Assembly (NCBI GenBank): GCA_963810065.1
Contig: CAWELX010000001.1
Location: 142,819 to 206,818, forward strand
Source: an uncultured Chloroflexia bacterium
GTDB lineage: Bacteria; Chloroflexota; Limnocylindria; Limnocylindrales; CSP1-4
DNA: 64,000 bases
Reading direction: 5' to 3'
Below, piece by piece: positions 12,211 through 32,027 of this stretch. Each line of letters starts with the position of its first letter. Position 1 is the stretch's first letter. The notes beneath the pieces were generated by a model, which was given only the letters and a program-made list of their open reading frames with translations, was not told where the DNA came from and did not search any database. The position numbers and the translations under genes are program-made.

Positions 12211-12924
12211 ATGGGCCGTGGATTCGGTGGCGCCGTCAGGCTGATGGCCGCGACGCTCATCGGGATCGGCATGCTGGTGGTGCCGGGGCCGGGCACGTCG
12301 GCGACCCTCGCTCGGTCCCCCGATTGTCCCTCGCCGCCGATCACCGCCGAGAAGCTCGCCCGGGTGATGTACGAGGGGAACCCGCTCGCCTGCTTCGGCG
12401 GCCGCCTTCTGACCTTCTCCACCTACGTCCCGCCGGCCCCGGAGGGGATCGGATGGGCGATGGCCTGGTCGATCTCACCGGGCTGGCTCGATGACAACAG
12501 CGGCAGCATGGTGTGGCTCACCACGGGGCCGACGCGTGACTTCGGGCCGGGCGAGGTGATCACCGCGTGGATTCCGCCGGCGCTCGGGCGATGCTCCGTC
12601 GGCGAGATGCTGGCGTCCTGCCCATTCCGCTGGTTCGTTGGTCGTTGGACGACCGTGAGCGCCCACTTCGACGGCCCCGTTGCCCGAACCTGCCGGTTCA
12701 CCGATCACCCGTCCGAGCCGGGCTTCACGAAGCGTGATGCGGTGGCGAACTGCAAGGCGAAGCTCATCGTCCTGTCCGTCGGCTCGGTCGCTCCCCCCGA
12801 CACGTCCATGGCAGCCCCGGGTCACGAGGATCCCGTCGGACTTCCGCTGGTGCCGCTTGCGGTGGCCACCCTTGCCCTCCTCTGGCCTTGGCTCGCCCAG
12901 CGTTCACCGTCGCGTCGCAGCTAG
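12211..12924 (+). CDS. Secreted Cys-rich protein with C-terminal hydrophobic anchor (paralog family member B)
   Basis: Signal peptide MGRGFGGAVRLMAATLIGIGMLVVPG. Motifs ACFGG, HFDGPVARTC and NCKAKLIV. C-terminal LPLVPLAVATLALLWPWLAQRSPSRRS is a TM helix plus basic tail, resembling a sorting signal. Confidence 0.6.
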   Translation: MGRGFGGAVRLMAATLIGIGMLVVPGPGTSATLARSPDCPSPPITAEKLARVMYEGNPLACFGGRLLTFSTYVPPAPEGIGWAMAWSISPGWLDDNSGSMVWLTTGPTRDFGPGEVITAWIPPALGRCSVGEMLASCPFRWFVGRWTTVSAHFDGPVARTCRFTDHPSEPGFTKRDAVANCKAKLIVLSVGSVAPPDTSMAAPGHEDPVGLPLVPLAVATLALLWPWLAQRSPSRRS

Positions 12925-14416: not shown

Positions 14417-14653
14417 CGCCCGCGCCTCGCCCACGGCAAGGGCAGTGCGGCCCGGCACGGACCGGCCCCACCGGTTCCGCACGTCCGGCCGGCTCGGCCT
14501 CCGGGGGGCGGTGGCGCGCGCTGAACCTCGGCGCGCCGTGCCATTCGACTCTGGTGGACCGCGTTCCCGGCAGCGAACGTGGCCGCGGGCGCGAACCGGA
14601 ATCGAGCCAGCCCGAGGGCGAAGACCGTCCCGCGCCGCGGAGGATCACCCGCC

Positions 14654-23900: not shown

Positions 23901-24866
23901 GAGCTCCGGGGTCACGGTCCCGTAGCGGCGGGCCAGGCCTCGCTCACACTCGGCCCGCAGCCAGCTGTCGACGGTCTCGCCCTCGGGCACCGGGAAGTGC
24001 GGGATGCGCAGCTGCCCCAGCGGCAGCTCCAGGTCCACCATCTCGGCGATCCGGCGCGTGTTGAGGTAGGCCTCGCGCTGCTCCGGGAAGAGCGCGAACA
24101 TCTCCGCGGCCGACTTCAGGTAGAACTCGGCGCCCTCGAACTTCATCCGGTTGGGCGTGTCCAGGTTGCTGCCCGTGCCGACGCAGAGCAGGACATCGTG
24201 GGCCTCCGCCTGCGCCCGGTGGACGTAGTGGAGGTCGTTGGTCACGACCAGCGGCAGGCCGGCCTCCGGCGCCAGGCGCAGGAGCTGCTCGTTGAGGCGG
24301 GCCTGCTCCGGGATGCCGTGGTCCTGCAACTCCAGGTAGAAGTTGCCCGTGCCGAAGATGTCGCCATACTCGCCGGCCAGCCGGCGGGCCTGCTCCCAGT
24401 CGTCCACCTCCAGGGCCTTCGGGATCTCGCCGCCCAGGCAGGCCGAGAGGCCCACGAGCCCCTCCGCGTGGCGGGCGAGGAGCTCCCGGTCGATCCGCGG
24501 CTTGTAGTAGTAGCCGTCGAGGTGGGCGTCCGTCAGGAGCCGGGTCAGGTTCCGGTACCCGACGAGGTCCTTGGCCAGCAGGACGAGGTGGAAGGGCTGG
24601 GAATCTGCCTTCCCCTCCTTGTCGCGCATGGAGCGGCGGGCGATGTAGGTCTCCACGCCGATGATCGGCTTGATGCCCTTGGACTTCGCCGCCTGGTAGA
24701 AGGCGACAGCCCCGTACAGTGCGCCGTGGTCGGTCAGGGCGAGGGAGTCGAAGCCCAGCCGCTCGGCCTCGTCGACGAGATCGGTGATCCGGCCGAGACC
24801 GTCGAGGAGCGAGAACTCGGAATGGACATGGAGATGCGAAAAATCTTGAGGCCGGAGGGTCGTCAC
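20925..24866 (-). CDS. dnaE: DNA polymerase III alpha subunit with ~140-aa Gly/Pro-rich C-terminal extension
   Basis: PHP N-terminus (V/M)TTLRPQDFSHLHVHSEFSLLDG. GTG start at 24864-24866 with an in-frame TGA two codons upstream. Core polymerase and OB-fold regions are intact. Confidence 0.9.
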   Translation of the reverse strand: MTTLRPQDFSHLHVHSEFSLLDGLGRITDLVDEAERLGFDSLALTDHGALYGAVAFYQAAKSKGIKPIIGVETYIARRSMRDKEGKADSQPFHLVLLAKDLVGYRNLTRLLTDAHLDGYYYKPRIDRELLARHAEGLVGLSACLGGEIPKALEVDDWEQARRLAGEYGDIFGTGNFYLELQDHGIPEQARLNEQLLRLAPEAGLPLVVTNDLHYVHRAQAEAHDVLLCVGTGSNLDTPNRMKFEGAEFYLKSAAEMFALFPEQREAYLNTRRIAEMVDLELPLGQLRIPHFPVPEGETVDSWLRAECERGLARRYGTVTPELQGRLDYELGVITRMDYAGYFLIVADFVRFAREQGIQTSCRGSAPGSIVTYTLGITPVDPIHYQLPFERFLNPDRVTMPDIDVDFEDGRRDEVINYVTRKYGADHVAQIITFGTMLARAAIRDVGRVLGSSYGDVDRIAKAVPNQLGIKLDEALETSPQLKEMYTGDPSVRRIIDFAKQLEGVARNASTHAAGVVISREPLTELMPLQRATNSDAAMTQYEMHGIEALGLLKFDFLGLSNLTILRAAVDLVREQRGVEIDLDRIPLDDTRTFELLASGETTGVFQLESAGMRRYIRELRPTSVYDLAAMVALYRPGPMDNIPAYIRRKHGQEKVTYLHPLLEPFLERTYGIFVYQEDIMAAAVALGGFSGPEADTLGYAIRKKKSSVLRSMKDQFVTQAGERGVRPETIDAVFKAFEPFERYGFNKAHATTYGLVAYQTAYLKANYTVEYMASVLTAFRDNAEKVAAAVAECRRLGIAVLPPDVHASHLEFTVEGAAIRFGLLAVKNVGHGAIESIIAAREADGPFRSFADFCNRIDLRLVNKRVLESLVKVGALNAFGHPAQLLLALDDVLAAAQSDQRERASGQISFFDLAAEPAALEAPLPAATEVPVRERLRWEKELLGLYLSDHPLGEVAERIGKFVTAYSGDLKDESLDGEHIVVGGVVTGIRSVVTKSRSTMAIVTLEDLQGSIEVVVFPRLYEQTGPTWQDGAILLVGGRIDHRGEEVSLLADMVRDFDAASVAGEESFAAEVAAADRGRPRGRPGGNGNGRGGAPDAGRPPVRAPGPGAGGGSAGLGAGGGVGPGGAPRRAAPTEGPPRTSPIRASAPIEPPGAGELDGPGGAGAPGEPTVHAPGPVPGSAGPADLAAVAPDRDEPAFPEETRAAALRTEAAPTVPREAGPGGCLHVRFSAGLPTEDLQAAMAEVRDVLRGRPGATRVTIHLPQGTGRPALPMELRVGVAYDAELMAEVTRRLRPGLVDLSLTADGDEMAASA

Positions 24867-24890
24867 GGGAGGTCAATGGTAGCCGGGCGA
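24847..24890. repeat. dnaE-start repeat copy A (functional copy: 7 dnaE codons plus 24 bp of 5'UTR)
   Basis: TGAGGCCGGAGGGTCGTCACGGGAGGTCAATGGTAGCCGGGCGA. Confidence 0.85.
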
Positions 24891-24933
24891 GCGCAGGGGC
24901 TGGTGGGTGCGCGGCGCGGAGGAGTGGGTCGTG

Positions 24934-26403
24934 CTAGCCGTGGAAGTTGAACGCCGGATACCGTCCTGCTGGGAGAGGTTCGGCCGGATCGCCCTTTCGC
25001 CACTGCGACTCGTATTCGATGAACGCGCCGTCGTCGTCGTTGGTGATTCCGAGATTGACCCACCAGCCCCCGAGTCCTGCCCAGTAGTCGAGCCACTCAA
25101 CACCGTCACCCCACGGGCCCGTTCGGTCGCCGTATGTGTCGGGTTCGATCGCGGTGCCGGGATAGGTGGCTGGCATCACCCGCAGGCCCTCGATTCCACC
25201 AGGCAGCGTGTAGCGCCTGGCCAGGATCCGCAGACAGCCATTGACATAGGCGAGATGGTCCGCCAGCGGCGCGTCGCTGCCGTCGGGTCCGCGAGGCCAC
25301 TCCTCGTCGGTCAAGGTTCCGGTCGCGGTGCTTCGCGCCGGAGGCATGCGGTCCCGGAAGAACACGAACGCGTCGCCGACGCCCTCCTCGCGGGTCCGCC
25401 CCCTCCAGTCTCGGGGTGCCGCCGGTACAGCGCCGGGCGCGTCGGAGGGCAGCGTGACCGACGGCACGCTGCGGTCCGGCTGGGTCCAGCCATCGGTCGC
25501 TGCCGCTCTCATCGCCTGGTCGGCGACCTCGTAGAGATGGCCAAGGTCATCATCGGGACCCGTCGGCCGGGCTACGCCGATGCTCAGCTCCACCGGCTCA
25601 TCGTCGATCGGCTGCCCGACGGCAGCCCTCAAGTTGTCGACATAGGCGCGAACAGCGGTGGCATCCGGCAAACGGATGGCGATCAGGAACTCGTCGCCGC
25701 CGATCCGAAAGACAACCCCGGGATCGGCGACCTTCGAGAGGCGCTCGGCGACCCTGAGGAGATGGGCATTACCCACCCGGTAGCCGTGCCGGTAGTTGAT
25801 CTCCTGGAGGCCCCGATAGTCGACCATGACGAACGCGAGGTCATCCGGCACGGGGTCGAGCCATCGTGCCACGCTCTCCGGCGTGAATGAGAGACCGGAT
25901 CCAGGAGACGACGGGCCACTCCAGACGGGTGGCAGCCGCGTCGTGTCGTCCAGCTGCTCGACCAGGTAGCCCTCGACGACCTCCGGCCATCCGGCGATCG
26001 CCTCGAGGAAGGCGTTGGTCGTGAGCTGGTCGCGGACGACCAGCGCCTGCGCGATCGATGGAGCCAGGCGTGCGAGGTGGGGCAGGCTCACCGTGCTGGC
26101 CTGGCCAGGAACCTCCATCCGGACGCTGCCGTCGTCACGCGGCGCGACGGCGAGAAGCGCGTAGTGGCCGGCCTCGTACCAGGCGAGCAGCCTCCCCGAG
26201 GCCTCCGCGGCGGGACGCGTGCTGGGCCAGGATCGCCCGTCTGGTCCGGGCGTCGACCAAGGCGAGCCATGCGAACCAATGGTCAGGTTCTCGCCGATCG
26301 CCTCTTCGAGCTCCCACAGGGCCTGGTCGTCACGAGCGGCCAGATCCGCGATGAAGGCCGCCACCTGGGCGCCTCGCGGCCCGTAGTCCGGCATCGAGGT
26401 CAT
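24934..26403 (-). CDS. GGDEF-domain protein (putative diguanylate cyclase) with uncharacterised N- and C-terminal (~170 aa) regions
   Basis: VMVDYRGLQEINYRHGYRVGNAHLLRVAERLSKVADPGVVFRIGGDEFLIAIRL contains the GGDEF active-site motif. Confidence 0.75.
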   Translation of the reverse strand: MTSMPDYGPRGAQVAAFIADLAARDDQALWELEEAIGENLTIGSHGSPWSTPGPDGRSWPSTRPAAEASGRLLAWYEAGHYALLAVAPRDDGSVRMEVPGQASTVSLPHLARLAPSIAQALVVRDQLTTNAFLEAIAGWPEVVEGYLVEQLDDTTRLPPVWSGPSSPGSGLSFTPESVARWLDPVPDDLAFVMVDYRGLQEINYRHGYRVGNAHLLRVAERLSKVADPGVVFRIGGDEFLIAIRLPDATAVRAYVDNLRAAVGQPIDDEPVELSIGVARPTGPDDDLGHLYEVADQAMRAAATDGWTQPDRSVPSVTLPSDAPGAVPAAPRDWRGRTREEGVGDAFVFFRDRMPPARSTATGTLTDEEWPRGPDGSDAPLADHLAYVNGCLRILARRYTLPGGIEGLRVMPATYPGTAIEPDTYGDRTGPWGDGVEWLDYWAGLGGWWVNLGITNDDDGAFIEYESQWRKGDPAEPLPAGRYPAFNFHG

Positions 26404-26681
26404 GCGCCGATCGTCGACCCCACGGCTCGGGCGCGCAATGGGCCGATTGTCAGTGCTTCCCTGGTTGGCTCAGCCGTGGTTCGGTGCGATGAACCTCGAT
26501 TCGGGCGGCCGCATCTCCAGGACCGCGCCTGGCTCGAGCGGCCCGAACCCGTCGACCACCCAAATGCCAGCCAGCTGTCGCCGCACATGAACATCCTCGT
26601 GCGTCAAGGACGGTTGGTAAGTCCCGACGCCACAGGCAGCCACCCCTTGACCAGGCGACGAAGGTCATCGACAGTGGAGCC

Positions 26682-27053
26682 GTGGCAGACGACGGCAACC
26701 CACCCGATCCAGACCAACTGCTGCGCGTCAGGGCGGCGTTCGTGATCGCGTCGACCGGCGTCGTCCTCGGTGCCATCCTGCTCGCCAGCGGCGACACCGA
26801 TGGTGCGCGGTTGGCGTTCTTCCTGCTGCTGTGGGCGGTCTCACTCCTGCCGCGGACGCGGACGCAGCGGCTTGTCGTCGGGTCAGGGTTCCTGGCCCTG
26901 ATCGGGCTGTTGCTCTGGCAGGCGAGCCGAACGCGGGATGAGTTCGGGCTGCCGGAGACGCCATCAACCGTCCTCATGGCTGGGCTGGCGATCGCGTCGT
27001 TCATGGGCGCGGTCGCGTGTCTCGTCCTCGCCCGGCACTGGAGGCAGCTGTGA
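26682..27053 (+). CDS. Small hypothetical membrane protein
   Basis: Three predicted TM helices (VIASTGVVLGAILLASG, AFFLLLWAVSLL, LMAGLAIASFMGAVACLVLA). Confidence 0.35.
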   Translation: MADDGNPPDPDQLLRVRAAFVIASTGVVLGAILLASGDTDGARLAFFLLLWAVSLLPRTRTQRLVVGSGFLALIGLLLWQASRTRDEFGLPETPSTVLMAGLAIASFMGAVACLVLARHWRQL

Positions 27054-27209
27054 CGCTCGCTGCGCCGGCCACGGGCGCATCTGCCGGGCGGCGTGGTTGT
27101 CCTCTTGGGTGGCAGCCATCTACTGCCGCTGGTCGCAGGGTCCGCTCTTGACCCGTGACGAGCTGGGTCATCTCGCCGAGGTGCTGGCCCCGGACGCGTA
27201 GGCCCCGGA

Positions 27210-29147
27210 TCAGGCCGCGCGCCGCCCCTGCGCCTTCGCCTTGCGGCGGCAAAGCGGGCACCCGACGGGCAGCTTCGCGCGGGTGAAGGGCGACATCTTG
27301 TAGGCCGGGTGCTCGGGGTCGTCGGGGCAGATCCAGCGCACGGTCTTGTCGTAGGTCGCCTTGATCTTGTCCGGGCGGAGCGGCGCGTTTGCGTGCGCGT
27401 CCCATTCGCGCTCGAGGTCCGGCCGGACCGCAGCGAGCGCGTTGAGGCCGTCCGCGCGCTCGGTGGAGCACCGCTGGCAGCGGGTCTGGCGCACCGTCCG
27501 CTGGGCAACCTCTGCCTCCCACGTATGGCCGCAGCGGTGGCACTTCCAGTGCGCCTTGTAGCCGGATCCGGCCTTGACCGATGAGGCGAGCCGGTTGTTC
27601 GCCACGCTGTCCCAGTCGCGCAGGACGAGCGGGAAGTCGGTGAGCATCCTGCCCGCGACCTTGACCGAGGCGGTCGTGCGGCCCGGCGTGACGGTCGCCT
27701 CCATCGGCGGCAGCCCGATCTCCGCGAGCGAGGCGTTGAGCGCGGCGACGTTGGCGATCACCGAGCGCGCCTTCGCCGCCGCGTCGTAGGTCGCCTTGCC
27801 CTTCGCCGCCCGGTCGTGGGCATCGACGATGAGCTGGCCGATCGAGCACAGCGTGCCACGCGGGTCGTGGCGGGCGGTCCAGGCGAAGTGCTGGTCGGGG
27901 CGCAGGTCGCGCATCGTGGCCTTGACGATGCCGCCGAACGTGGCGAGGTCGGCCTGGCCCGCGTGGTAGGCGCGCACGAGCGCGAGCACGAGTTGGAGCC
28001 GGCCCGCGTTGCGGAGCGAGTAGCGCCGGCGCTTCCCGAACCGGCGGTCGATCCAGTCGAGGATCCGCTCGGCGGCGGCGTTGCTCCGGGGGAAGCCGAA
28101 GAACTGGCGGTGGAGGCCGACCTGCTGGCGGATGAGGGCGTCGTTCGTGCGGCACCAGCCGTCGAGCGCGACGGCCTGCCGAGCGACGGCGAAGGCGCGG
28201 AGCGCGTCCCAGTCGTGGTTCGACCACTGGGCCTTGCGGAATAGCTCGACGTTGGCCGGGTCGTCGGGGTTGTTTCCGTCGTTGCGGGCGTGCTCGCGGA
28301 TGAGCCGCCCGAGGTGGAACTCGCACGAGTAGAAGTTGGCGTTGGGCCATCGCCGCTGCGCCGCGTTGGCGATCGCGCCCGCACCGTCCGCGACCACCCA
28401 CTCGGGGCCGTCGCCGCCGGGGTCGATCTCGTCGAGGAAGTCGATCCAGGAGCGCCCGGTCTCGTCGGGGGCGAGGCCGATCCGCCAGGGCATCATCGCC
28501 TGCTTGGGGTCGTCGCCGCCGACCGCGATGAGCACCGCGCCGCCGCGCTCGTCGGCATTCCAGGTCGGGTCGAAGCCCTCCGCGCCGTATGCGCGCAGGT
28601 TGAGCGGCTTGGAGTCGAGGATGAGGATGCGCGGGCACCTCGACGGCGCGAGCGACTTGTCGATCGCCGTGCCGAAGAGGTCGAGGTAGCGGGCGGCGAG
28701 GGTGTGCTGGCGGCTCGCGTGCCGCATCTTGTGGCCGTCCTCGACGTAGCGGTGGGCTTCGAGCCGGATCGTGCGGCTCGCCCGCCGGAGCGACATCCCC
28801 TGCGCGACGAGCTGGAGCAGGTGCGCGATCTCGATGGCCGTGTGGAGGTAGTCGGGCGGCGAGATCGGCCCCTGGGCGACGCCGGGCTTCACGTCGCAGG
28901 TGAGGCACTCCGAGCCCGGGCCGTGCGCGTCGCTCGGGCGGCGTCGTCCGAGCGAGAAGGTGTGCGGATCCGAGCCGTCATCGGGCGCGCAGCGGAACCG
29001 CTGACGGCGGTAGGGCGCGCTCGTCCAGTCCCGCCGGCCCCACAGGGTGATGCTGCCCTGGTGTCCCTTCGAGCACGTCGTCGGGCGGTTGGCGATCACG
29101 AGCCTCGGTCGCCCCGTCCTGCCCGTGCCCGTCGCTGTCCCGTCCAT
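27210..29147 (-). CDS. MULE/IS256-family (Mutator-like) DDE transposase homolog with N-terminal Cys cluster and two C-terminal zinc-ribbon motifs
   Basis: MULE core ILILDSKPL...DETGRSWIDFLDEI...WVVADGAGAIANAAQRRWPNANFYSCEFHLGRLIRE (D...E-x-SW...DG-x-G...P-x-A...C-x-x-H). C-terminal WKCHRCGHTWEAEV...CQRCS and WICPDD...VGCPLCRR are DUF4379-like zinc ribbons. Confidence 0.6.
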   Translation of the reverse strand: MDGTATGTGRTGRPRLVIANRPTTCSKGHQGSITLWGRRDWTSAPYRRQRFRCAPDDGSDPHTFSLGRRRPSDAHGPGSECLTCDVKPGVAQGPISPPDYLHTAIEIAHLLQLVAQGMSLRRASRTIRLEAHRYVEDGHKMRHASRQHTLAARYLDLFGTAIDKSLAPSRCPRILILDSKPLNLRAYGAEGFDPTWNADERGGAVLIAVGGDDPKQAMMPWRIGLAPDETGRSWIDFLDEIDPGGDGPEWVVADGAGAIANAAQRRWPNANFYSCEFHLGRLIREHARNDGNNPDDPANVELFRKAQWSNHDWDALRAFAVARQAVALDGWCRTNDALIRQQVGLHRQFFGFPRSNAAAERILDWIDRRFGKRRRYSLRNAGRLQLVLALVRAYHAGQADLATFGGIVKATMRDLRPDQHFAWTARHDPRGTLCSIGQLIVDAHDRAAKGKATYDAAAKARSVIANVAALNASLAEIGLPPMEATVTPGRTTASVKVAGRMLTDFPLVLRDWDSVANNRLASSVKAGSGYKAHWKCHRCGHTWEAEVAQRTVRQTRCQRCSTERADGLNALAAVRPDLEREWDAHANAPLRPDKIKATYDKTVRWICPDDPEHPAYKMSPFTRAKLPVGCPLCRRKAKAQGRRAA

Positions 29148-29248
29148 CGTTGCGAGCGTGCCGCAGGCCTGCGACAGGTTCTATGGCACAGATGGGGTGG
29201 GACTTAGCAACCGTCCTTGACGCACAAGTGAACACCCGGCTATTGACA

Positions 29249-29312
29249 GGTGGAGCTGCGAAGAGTACTGAGGCCGGAGGGTCGTCATGGGATGTCAATG
29301 GTAGCCGGGCGA
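29249..29312. repeat. dnaE-start repeat copy B
   Basis: GGTGGAGCTGCGAAGAGTAC-TGAGGCCGGAGGGTCGTCATGGGATGTCAATGGTAGCCGGGCGA. Minus-strand reading gives MTTLRPQYSSQLHLS. Confidence 0.85.
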
Positions 29313-31077
29313 TCAGGGGGCGCGGTGAGATGGACGGTTGAGCGTGACACTCCCACCACCAACGGCGATGACCAGCCGCTCCCCCACCCCGCCAGCCGCG
29401 GCACGCCGCCCCTCGCTCATGGTAGCTGCCCGTAGCACGGGGCCACGGTTCGACAATGCTGACGGGCCATCAGCATTCGGCCGTCCGACGGATCCGCCTC
29501 GCACCGGCGTCGCCGATCATGGATGCTTTGTGCGAGTTCCTCACCATGGAGACCTGGATGCCATGCGCGTGCGTGATGCCGACACTGCCCGTGGAGAGCT
29601 CGAACGGCATTATCTGGCTCGTCTACCGTCGCCCCGCAACCGGCGGGAGGCCACGCCGCTGGCCCTGTTGGCCCGCCGGGGGCCGGCGGCGACCGCGAAC
29701 GATGCGCACCACGGGGAGGCGACCTTCGAAAGCGGCCGGAGCGAGGGCTAGCGATGCCGAACGGGGGCCGCGACTGCTGCGGCGAGTGTGTCTTCAACCC
29801 GGCGAGCGTCGTGAGGACCGGCGGGGCCGCCTCCGAAGCGCTCACGCACGAAGCGGCGTTCTGCGAGATCCGGTCCGAGCTGCCCGTCGCCGACCCGTTC
29901 TACACCTACTGTGCGAACTTCCACACCGTCTCGCCCGCGCCCGACGGTCCCGTCTTCGCCGGCTTCCATGAATTCGGGCGTCTTCCCTGGCACGGCTCGG
30001 AGCCGGTCCGCCTGGCCCAGCGGCCTGGAAATCTCCGGTCTCGTTGTCTCTGACGGTGGAGCCGACCGCGAGTTCGCGGACCCCGCCGCGTACCTGGCCT
30101 GGTGGCGCAGCGCGCACTCGGGCGAGGACCCCGAGTACCCGTGGACGCTCCACGAGCGGATGCTGCCGCCGTCGATGCGCGCCGAGGGCCGCGACGCCCC
30201 CTCCGCGATGGAGCGCCTCCGGGCGCTGGTCGGGCGTGGCGGGGGGACCGCGCGCCGGCGCCCGCCGCCGCCCCTCGACGAGTCGATCCCGGACGCCTGG
30301 CAGCGACGCTGGGAGTGGTGGAGGGCGCTCGGCCACGAGGGGCGAGCGGACTGGTTCCTGGGCCGCGCTCTCGCCATCCTCGGCCTGGACGACGTGGAGG
30401 AACGCCTGGCCGACAAGAGGGTGGAGCATCGCCCAAGTGCCCACGTCGTGGAGGCGTGGCACGCCTGGCTGCTGCGAACAACGGAGGGGGTTGTGGAGCT
30501 GGCCGCGCACGTCGAGAGTCCGACCGCAACGGCGTTCCGGGCATTTCGGTCCTTGAACGTGGATCCCGATCTTGTCGCAGCGTATCGCGACATCTGGCTC
30601 CGGCCGCCGGACGACCCGCTGCGGAACGGCGACGAGGCGAAGGTCATCGCGGGCGCGCTGGCCGAGCAGGTCCGCGATCTCGACGCGGGAACGTATCGCT
30701 ACTGGCCCACGCTTCCCGCGGCTTCTGAGGACGACATCCGGGCGCGCGGCTTCGATCCGCGGCGCGTGGTCGTCCTTGGCTTCGCGGCCGAGGAGCGTGA
30801 TGGCTCGCCGGCCACCTCCGTCCCGGTTCCGTGGATCGGGCGGGTCACCCTGTGGCGGCGGGGTTCGGAGTCCGTCTTCGTCGAGGGGGCCATCGTCGAG
30901 ACCTGTGACCCGGCACTTGACCCCGAGGCGCACGCGAAGTCACGTCATGTTCACGAGGAGAACGTTCGCCGGCTTCGGGAGCGGCTCGACGCCTACGCGT
31001 CGACTGACGGACGTGGAGGTGCCTGAGCGGCGCACCTGACGGTTCAGCGAGTCGTGCGTGAACTCCTGCCCATTGGC
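29313..31077 (+). mobile_element. Putative older, degraded inserted segment E1 between repeat copies B and C
   Basis: Bounded by copies B and C. Its only sizeable gene is frameshifted. Confidence 0.3.
29754..31026 (+). CDS. Hypothetical protein with N-terminal CCGEC motif; frameshift near 30040
   Basis: MPNGGRDCCGECVFNP... (frame 29754..30053) continues as ...GLEISGLVVSDGGADREFADPAAYLAWW... in frame 29911..31026. Confidence 0.35.
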
Positions 31078-31138
31078 GGGTGGAGCTGGCAGAATCCTGA
31101 GGCCGGAGGGTCGTCACGGGAGGTCAATGGTAGCCGGG
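31078..31138. repeat. dnaE-start repeat copy C
   Basis: GGTGGAGCTGGCAGAATCC-TGAGGCCGGAGGGTCGTCACGGGAGGTCAATGGTAGCCGGG. Minus-strand reading gives VTTLRPQDSASSTR. Confidence 0.85.
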
Positions 31139-31238: not shown

Positions 31239-32027
31239 CTATTGCGCGGTCCAGCCCCCGTCGACCGGCAGGACGGCGCCCGTCACCAGGCCCGACGCCC
31301 GGGAGGCCAGGAAGACGACCACGGCCGCGACGTCGGCGGTCGTGCCGACCCGGCCGATGGGGATCCGTGCGAGGACTTCGGCGAGAAACGCCGGGTCGTC
31401 GAGGCGCTCGGCAGTCCCGGGCGTGTAGATCCAGGTGGGCGCGATCGCGTTGACCGTCACCCCGTGCGGCGCCCACTCGAGCGCGAGGACCTTGGTCAGC
31501 AGGTTCACGCCGCCCTTGCTCGCGGAGTAGACCGCGTGGCGCCGGATGCCGACGAGCCCGGCCTGCGAGCTCACGTTGACGATGCGCCCATAGCCTCGCT
31601 CGACCATGTGGCGACCGACGGCCTGGCTGACGAAGAAGACGCCCTTGAGGTTGACGGCCATCATCTCGTCCCAGTCGGCCTCGGTGACATCGAGCGCGTC
31701 GTGATTCGCTCCGAGGCCCGCGTTGTTGACGAGAATGTCGATCCGGCCGTACGAGGCGACCGCCACGTCGACCGCGGCCCTGGTGGCGCCGACATCCGTC
31801 ACATCGATGCGGAACGGCTCCACCTGCCCGCCGTCCGGGGCGCTCCAGGCGACCTCGCTCGGGCTGGCGTCGCGGACGCCGGCGAGGACGTGGGCGCCGC
31901 AGGCCGCCAGCGCCCGCGCGAGGTCGCGGCCGATCCCACGGCCGGCACCGGTCACGAGGGCAACCTGCCCGGTCAGGTCGAAGTCCGGTCGCTGGATGGG
32001 AGCTCCTCCGCTTCGTCCGCGGCGCAA
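31239..32027 (-). CDS. Short-chain dehydrogenase/reductase (SDR)
   Basis: Cofactor-binding motif TGAGRGIG. NNAG motif. Catalytic YSASK. Confidence 0.8.
   Translation of the reverse strand: MRRGRSGGAPIQRPDFDLTGQVALVTGAGRGIGRDLARALAACGAHVLAGVRDASPSEVAWSAPDGGQVEPFRIDVTDVGATRAAVDVAVASYGRIDILVNNAGLGANHDALDVTEADWDEMMAVNLKGVFFVSQAVGRHMVERGYGRIVNVSSQAGLVGIRRHAVYSASKGGVNLLTKVLALEWAPHGVTVNAIAPTWIYTPGTAERLDDPAFLAEVLARIPIGRVGTTADVAAVVVFLASRASGLVTGAVLPVDGGWTAQ

Follow-up and report, generated by a model that had tools for sequence, protein, structure and literature searches.

Introduction

Prokaryotic Mutator-like transposases (p-MULTs) were divided into five families by Guérillot et al. 2014 (PMC3942029), which share terminal repeats that are 18-39 bp long and end in C, target duplications of 8-9 bp, a C/D-x2-H signature, a long helical insert and a circular intermediate. 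In two of these families insertion takes place at 13-17 bp upstream of a sigma-A -35 box, as shown for TnGBS/ISLre2 (p-MULT 3) and for the ISKra4 group (p-MULT 4); where the repeats are near-perfect, both orientations occur. A tethering to the RNA polymerase initiation complex was proposed, without test, to account for this; IS256 (p-MULT 1) was reported to insert at random, with no preference (PMC3942029). Here we describe an element found in a stretch of 64,000 nucleotides, called the window in what follows, from an uncultured Chloroflexia bacterium (assembly GCA_963810065.1, contig CAWELX010000001.1, positions 142,819 to 206,818). This element, of 2,633 bp, is very probably an autonomous DNA transposon, small in size and belonging to the Mutator-like (IS256-related) superfamily of prokaryotes, which arrived as a secondary insertion in DNA already lying upstream of dnaE. 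Its transposase carries zinc-binding modules, and the family to which it belongs selects as target the hexamer YTGACA, at 14 bp from the element end, and not the start of dnaE, as had been proposed in a preliminary description of the window.

The element has the hallmarks of p-MULTs, namely a DDE triad on an RNase H-like fold, a C-x2-H motif, a helical insert, repeats of 30 bp with a terminal C, and an 8-bp duplication. Its best relatives in sequence and fold are the IS256 family, including ISCth4 (PDB 6xg8/6xgw/6xgx), and the IS1249 group. With IS256 it has in common the DDE and C-x2-H residues, the long helical insert and the 8-bp duplication. The window protein is however about 250 amino acids (aa) longer and has a zinc finger at its N-terminus and two DUF4379 ribbons at its C-terminus, it scores far below the family cutoffs, and insertion in its family is directed by a hexamer, whereas that of IS256 is reported to be random.

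The likeness in target choice is with the ISKra4 group (ISKra2/4/5/6, ISCasp2/3 and others), whose members have a DDE transposase, near-perfect repeats that end in C, and duplications of 8-9 bp. Their insertions are situated 13-17 bp from a predicted sigma-A -35 box, which may be on either side, and some members carry passenger genes; the parent p-MULT 4 family is present in Chloroflexi among other phyla (PMC3942029). The window family differs from this group in that its weak matches are to IS256 and IS1249, and in that most of its targets consist of the hexamer only, without a full promoter. The integrative and conjugative elements of the TnGBS type and ISLre2 also combine a Mutator-like DDE transposase with insertion at a fixed 15-17 bp upstream of -35 boxes, and a circular intermediate is described for them in the literature. 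They are elements of Firmicutes, some of them large and conjugative, which insert in one orientation owing to asymmetric repeats, and they have no detectable sequence match to the window family.

Eukaryotic MULE/Mutator elements likewise have a DDE core with the C/D-x2-H signature, fused zinc-finger modules, and a preference for the 5′ region of genes. They belong to another kingdom; their zinc modules are of the WRKY and SWIM types, whereas those of the window protein are DUF4379 treble clefs, and the Pfam MULE score of the latter is just below threshold. A literature search for DUF4379 together with transposase found no papers, and zinc ribbons are not mentioned in PMC3942029. The zinc-ribbon-fused lineage was not found described in the papers and annotated collections searched, while its kind of target selection is already documented for other branches of the superfamily.

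Results

A complete element nested in the insert upstream of dnaE

A 6.2-kb insert lies upstream of dnaE in the window. A 38-nt sequence from the start of dnaE, GGCTACCATTGACCTCCCGTGACGACCCTCCGGCCTCA, is found there three times, at the true dnaE start (24847-24884), at 29269-29306 (copy B, 2 mismatches) and at 31098-31135 (copy C, no mismatch), with a chance expectation of 0, so that the long direct repeats first noticed in the preliminary description are real. The transposase gene (27210-29147, minus strand) is, as also stated there, the only recombinase-like gene among the four main open reading frames (ORFs) of the insert; the others include a GGDEF protein (24934-26403) and a 371-aa ORF (29911-31026) without family match in Pfam or NCBIfam.

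The dnaE repeats had been taken to stand in place of the usual architecture of terminal inverted repeats (TIRs) and target site duplication (TSD). Both are present, and had been overlooked. A 30-nt inverted repeat, complementary at 28 of 30 positions (chance expectation 0), encloses the transposase gene and a 123-aa ORF. On the minus strand its left copy (IRL, 29199-29228) reads CTTGTGCGTCAAGGACGGTTGCTAAGTCCC and has a C at the tip; it is kept with 1 to 3 mismatches in 7 genome and 37 metagenome loci; its right copy (IRR, 26596-26625) reads CTCGTGCGTCAAGGACGGTTGGTAAGTCCC on the plus strand. Of the two places where such repeats had been suggested to lie, near 24891 and near 29248, the second was about right; none was found near 24891, the partner being the IRR. 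Adjoining the IRR and the IRL are the two copies of an 8-bp TSD, TGAACATC (26588-26595) and TGAACACC (29229-29236), both given on the plus strand, which match at 7 of 8 positions. The whole element, oriented on the minus strand, thus extends from 26596 to 29228 and is made of the IRL, the transposase gene, a variable passenger segment and the IRR; the same ends enclose elements of 2.6-4.0 kb in the related loci L001-L005, L013 and L048.

The preliminary description proposed that the transposase homolog had integrated the insert site-specifically at the dnaE start and had made the long direct repeats in doing so, perhaps through recognition of dnaE by the zinc ribbons. That the gene is the sole recombinase-like one among the main ORFs, and that 22 nt separate it from repeat copy B, speak in favour of this. 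Its own TIRs and TSD are however wholly inside the insert, of which the transposon covers 2.6 kb out of 6.2, and a second cassette (29328-31079) is free of transposase. Moreover, starting from the neighbouring 70-aa TOBE protein, we retrieved two contigs of a close relative whose dnaE is 95% identical (L064 and L065). L064 has three dnaE-start cores, of which the one at 14541 is the real start and the others lie at 12658 and 13654; between them are small cassettes on the opposite strand (PIN, DUF5674), and there is no transposase. Conversely, neither dnaE, nor the GGDEF protein, the 371-aa protein or the dnaE core was found in any of the 63 related loci. Taken together, the element's own TIRs and TSD, the related dnaE-start array lacking a transposase and the 63 loci lacking dnaE indicate that the transposase came in later, nested in the insert, and did not make the dnaE repeats; integration specific to the dnaE start is hardly credible. 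The annotation of the locus is corrected accordingly: the dnaE-upstream insert carries the transposase as a passenger and was not caused by it.

The insertion point can be examined on paralogous sequences. Each extra core is followed by a stub of about 100 nt, with 55-68% identity between stubs. The three uninterrupted ones (window copy C and two in L064) are 62-68% identical among themselves and 51-59% identical to dnaE, and the stub of window copy B is 61% identical to dnaE and 55-59% to the other stubs. The uninterrupted stubs align across the insertion point of the transposon (GGTGTTCA with GGAGTTCA), which provides paralogous evidence of the empty site. On the plus strand, inside the decayed dnaE 5′ stub of copy B, lies a TTGACA (29243-29248); the 14 nt between it and the IRL tip are made up of 6 nt and the 8-bp duplication. 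We concluded that this TTGACA arose by chance in the decayed stub, and that the transposon then landed beside it.

An intact transposase with fused zinc modules

The 645-aa ORF is real and intact. It opens with an ATG, and every motif quoted in the preliminary description was found in it (ILILDSKPL, DETGRSWIDFL, VVADGAGAIANAAQRRWPNANFYSCEFH, CSKGH...RFRCAPDDG, HWKCHRCGHTW and CPLCRR). Comparison with Pfam gave two stretches of DUF4379 (PF14311; E 2e-23, 82.6 bits for a cutoff of 24.5). The MULE domain PF10551, at 27.2 bits, fell just short of its cutoff of 27.6, and is present in the precomputed annotation of many close homologs; the third model suggested earlier, Transposase_mut (PF00872), scored 16.6 bits, below its cutoff of 21. 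In NCBIfam, the curated cutoffs of the IS1249 and IS256 models were not reached by the window transposase (NF033544, 27.4 bits for a cutoff of 300; NF033543, 19.6 bits for a cutoff of 150). The IS256 model was nevertheless matched weakly by all 63 family members (best E 1e-9), and the IS1249 model by 62 of them. No ISKra4 or ISLre2 match was obtained at E<=1 among the 63 members in NCBIfam, where the presence of such models is not confirmed.

In an alignment of the 63 sequences 44 columns are invariant, and the window transposase keeps all 44; it is therefore not truncated relative to its homologs. The invariant residues include D254, C275, H278, E360, W534, C536, C557, C560, C607, H613 and C630, while D178, C53, H62, C81, C84 and C539 are conserved at 90% or more. 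The predicted structure (AlphaFold, pLDDT 80.7, pTM 0.67) is laid out as an ill-defined N-terminal beta region, two helices between residues 104 and 130, an RNase H-like core into which a long helical stretch is inserted, another long helix (435-476) and two small zinc-ribbon modules. The best matches among solved structures (Foldseek) were to the ISCth4 transposase of the IS256 family (E 2e-8, target TM-score about 0.5), followed by DUF4379-containing mitoribosomal proteins.

The domains, all encoded on the minus strand, can be delimited as follows. A putative zinc-finger region at residues ~23-88 (28884-29081), with C26, H30, C53, H62 and C81-x2-C84, is marked by conserved Cys and His columns, and is modelled with low to moderate confidence. 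Residues ~100-131 (28755-28850; G117-x-S-L-R...R128, of which G117, R121 and R128 are invariant) form a segment that resembles a two-helix DNA-binding unit, with predicted helices at 104-115 and 120-130; by its position it would correspond to the N2 domain with which p-MULTs bind their inverted repeats (PMC3942029). The DDE core and its alpha-helical insert occupy residues ~172-400 (27948-28634), as judged from conservation and from the ISCth4 match. D178 is predicted on strand 174-185, D254 after strand 250-253, and E360 in helix 357-369. The 106 residues from D254 to E360, modelled as helices 258-348, are within the published range of 99-138 aa for the insert, and C275-x2-H278 comes 21 aa past D254, slightly outside the published 11-19 aa. 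A first DUF4379 treble-clef zinc ribbon covers residues 509-562 (27462-27623; W534, C536-x2-C539, C557-x2-C560), and a second, DUF4379-like, residues ~575-635 (27243-27425; W605, C607, H613, C630-x2-C633). The ISCth4 fold match, the motifs and the two DUF4379 stretches support the view, already put forward in the preliminary description, that the protein is a Mutator/IS256-superfamily DDE transposase homolog fused to zinc-binding modules.

A profile search of 1.84 billion representatives was dominated by multi-DUF4379 repeat proteins. Full-length relatives down to about 28% identity retained the whole architecture and the catalytic residues. No full-length relative was found among 72,556 plasmids, where the DUF4379 part alone was matched, in proteins annotated 'zinc-ribbon domain-containing protein'.

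Relatives of the element are found at many sites

A protein search gave 81 relatives of 35-91% identity, mostly on contigs of 2.2-3.6 kb. These short contigs, and one contig (L003) that is exactly one element, are the assembly signature of a repeat. By genome scan, 26 loci were recovered, nearly all in metagenome-assembled genomes of Chloroflexota labelled Chloroflexia or Limnocylindria, and a metagenome scan with the repeat sequence gave 37 further loci. In L001-L005, elements of 2.6-4.0 kb are bounded on both sides by the window repeats with 1 to 3 mismatches, and distant subfamilies (38-58% identity) have repeats of their own, with the consensus CCnGTGCGCCA...GGTTGGTAAAT. Perfect duplications of 8-9 bp of unrelated sequence surround 11 related elements, among them GCGTCGGC, CCGCTGGC, AGGATGTC, ACAAGCCT, TGTGCGGC, CTCGCCAC, ACGCGCTG and TGACCCAG.

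The copy in the window might be a dead or domesticated transposase gene, without present mobility. Its TSD matches at only 7 of 8 positions and its TIRs at 28 of 30, it is single in the 64-kb window, and its exact protein is not on record elsewhere (neither the transposase nor the GGDEF protein was retrieved by assembly index look-up). We nevertheless consider this quite unlikely, since the ORF is full-length with every invariant residue, both ends are kept, and close relatives (85-92% identical) are found at different sites with perfect TSDs.

Transposase-less derivatives with the same repeats are found at L037 (498-1003) and L063 (56-1826). The L037 copy, of 506 bp, is non-autonomous and has a perfect 8-bp TSD, GCGTAGCG, with a CTGACA at the canonical distance, which indicates that it was mobilised in trans. 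At L057 (~661-664, minus orientation), an IRR is followed after 8 nt by an IRL. This junction could correspond to two adjacent copies, or to the junction of a circle or tandem dimer; the former is more likely, because the two repeats differ slightly.

L013 is a chimera, with a left repeat of the window subfamily and a right repeat of another, diverged by 6 mismatches, and a TTGACAG is present at 14 nt from both of its ends. This suggests recombination between two inserted copies.

The family inserts at a fixed distance from a hexamer

To examine the target, 45 distinct element ends were pooled, each with a flank of 40 nt or more. Nineteen of them have GTCA at offset -19 and 2 at -18, all other offsets being represented at most twice each. 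In the position matrix built on the 19 ends, a T (18/19) is followed by G, T, C and A (19/19 each) and then by A (13) or G (6), and no further position is conserved. The target therefore reads 5′-TGTCAR-N6-[8-bp duplication]-repeat or, on the other strand, an element tip at 14 bp from YTGACA. The binomial probability of such a concentration is about 1e-55, the background being one TGTCAR per 5.4 kb. The hexamer is found near about one end per element, which is either the transposase-proximal or the distal one. The rule is also valid in the subfamilies with different TIRs (38-58% identity), and in all YTGACA was observed at 14 bp from the element end in 29 independent insertions (two cases added later), in either orientation. 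The target-site-selecting mode suspected in the preliminary description is thus real; the TIRs and TSD are canonical and the specificity is for the hexamer rather than for the dnaE start. It provides a practical rule for metagenomes: YTGACA, 6 nt, 8-bp duplication, inverted repeat. Few bacterial elements are known to insert at a constant distance from the -35 hexamer, and a zinc-ribbon-fused, IS256-like lineage of uncultured Chloroflexota is now added to them.

A survival bias towards intergenic positions is common for insertion sequences, and one could imagine that the elements insert at random and persist only at harmless positions upstream of promoters. Selection cannot, however, give an offset exact to the single nucleotide such as that of the 45 ends, and it leaves unexplained the hexamers without -10 box, or a hexamer within a pseudogene stub as in the window. 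Such an origin of the rule is extremely improbable.

All subfamily repeats have TGCG(C/T)CA at positions 5-11. In the repeat of the window subfamily, CGTCAA stands 6 nt from the tip, which is the spacing between the target hexamer and the duplication, and an integrated copy thus displays the direct hexamers TGTCAA...(20 nt)...CGTCAA. Reading of the target by the same surface as the element's own repeat was rejected as the main explanation, as subfamilies whose repeats lack GTCAA still target TGTCAA.

Hexamer or promoter

TTGACA is the consensus of the -35 box, and this is why many copies land just upstream of promoters, outside genes. Five targets (L004, L005, L014, L030 and L049) are textbook promoters, with TTGACA-N18-TATTGT/TATCAT/TAACAT and then a leaderless start, and four of these five have an operator-like palindrome, GTGA(C/T)-N6-(G/A)TCAC. 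A strict -10 box (TANNNT at a spacer of 15-19) was found in 5 of 27 targets and in none of 22 controls, a count that assumes a -10 box like that of E. coli, which is perhaps not that of Chloroflexota. In ORF calling for a divergent gene downstream of the hexamer, control ends scored alike at 70% G+C.

The same transposon with the same target rule would also be obtained if the transposase, or the transpososome, docked on sigma-A or RNA polymerase at the -35 box, which would fix the distance upstream of promoters. The identity of the hexamer with the -35 consensus fits this mode of action, as do the distance of 14 bp, which is within the 13-17 bp reported for promoter-targeting p-MULTs (PMC3942029), the five textbook promoters, and three others with TTGACAG-N17/18-GACACTT. 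On the other hand, with the same assumption on the -10 box, 22 of the 27 targets lack a TANNNT at the required spacer, and no promoter was called in a scan of the window target. In the family's hexamer, moreover, GACA is invariant and the first T varies (6 CTGACA), unlike the pattern to be expected of promoter -35 boxes, of which TTG is the best conserved part. Docking on the polymerase is a less likely explanation, though a quite possible one.

The absence of a -10 box from most targets and the invariance of GACA speak for a hexamer that is read directly rather than for recognition of a functioning promoter, and the hexamer stays constant across subfamilies while the TIRs change. Given the element, a direct readout is a serious possibility, still somewhat short of an even chance. 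A more specific proposal is that a third Mutator-like lineage has come to find the -35 hexamer, independently of the two published ones, and that its fused zinc modules (the tandem DUF4379 ribbons and/or the N-terminal finger) alone recognise YTGACA and fix the position of the cut at 6 bp from it, without a full promoter or RNA polymerase; this we put forward only tentatively, as one that may well prove wrong.

Transposition may be pictured as follows. By analogy with IS256/ISCth4 and TnGBS, it may be of the copy-out/paste-in type, through a circular intermediate. The helix pair would read the subfamily-specific repeats, and the helices that recognise the ends would co-vary with those repeats. 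The hexamer would be read directly by the transposase, which is the least certain step, the strongly conserved C-terminal tandem of DUF4379 ribbons or the N-terminal finger being the candidate readers. Contact of a zinc module with YTGACA would then place the staggered 8-bp cut 6 bp away.

Several points weigh against this picture. The explanation proposed for the related families that target promoters is not a direct reading of DNA but a tethering to the RNA polymerase initiation complex (PMC3942029). The low count of -10 boxes among the targets assumes that those of Chloroflexota are like those of E. coli. No family member without zinc modules was found in the profile search among relatives down to about 28% identity, so that no natural comparison gives these modules a role. 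A TSD is missing in 3 of the 15 elements of which both ends are known, L011 (520-2711), L048 (251-2976) and the chimeric L013 (5919-8536), and the window copy, with its 2 TIR mismatches and its imperfect TSD, may be old. Finally, we infer, rather than observe, the activity, the circular intermediate, and the domain or host factor that reads the hexamer.

The target set suggests that the hexamer alone is sufficient. If it is, the choice between direct reading and tethering to RNA polymerase can be addressed with a single protein and a short DNA. Should direct readout by the zinc modules prove true, this family would be the simplest system for solving promoter targeting by p-MULTs, and it would offer a compact DDE integrase of the 'hexamer plus fixed offset' kind, with a swappable passenger module.

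Two observations were made on the promoters themselves. One promoter class was struck repeatedly and independently (L004, L014, L030/L043 and L049), and reads TTGACA-(T/G)-GTGA(C/T)-N6-(G/A)TCAC-N-TAACAT/TATTGT, with a leaderless start codon within ~6 nt. The TTGACAG-N17/18-GACACTT arrangement is common to three unrelated targets (L001, L002 and L009), and could represent a -10-like element peculiar to the lineage, or else a regulatory site that has been conserved.

Passenger segments

Between the transposase stop and the IRR, the window copy has a putative gene of 123 aa (26682-27053, plus strand), whose product resembles a membrane protein with four transmembrane segments. It gave no family match in Pfam or NCBIfam, and no homolog in other copies of the element. 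A conserved second gene is ruled out, as the segment past the transposase stop is non-homologous between copies. Transposases that are ~90% identical are accompanied by wholly different passenger segments of 160-1,960 nt (window 26626-27209; L001-L005, L007, L013-L015, L020 and L048). Their ORFs are opposite in strand to the transposase and differ in each copy: HEAT_2, DUF4279, Amidase_6, HTH_26 with a membrane protein, and several secreted or membrane ORFs.

The start of dnaE as an accretion hotspot

Independently of the transposon, the start of dnaE behaves as a site of accretion, where the 38-nt core and its ~100-nt conserved stub are repeated before unrelated cassettes (window 24847-31135; L064 12658-14578; L065 13413-13466). 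The cassettes differ between the genomes, with the GGDEF gene and the 371-aa ORF in the window, and pairs of PIN and DUF5674 genes in L064. No integrase was found among the insert ORFs checked, or among the genes called around the L064 and L065 arrays, and the organisation resembles that of arrays of integrase-less, cis-mobilizable elements. In L065, the core and a dnaE-like sequence apparently come immediately after an SDR gene, and there the contig ends; this is probably the empty site for the whole 6.2-kb insert. The SDR gene (31239-32027 in the window) is reduced to fragments in L064 (11626-11839), and the same small-gene cassettes are found between the TOBE and SDR genes in L065 (10302-12339), which indicates that the flexible region reaches beyond the dnaE start.

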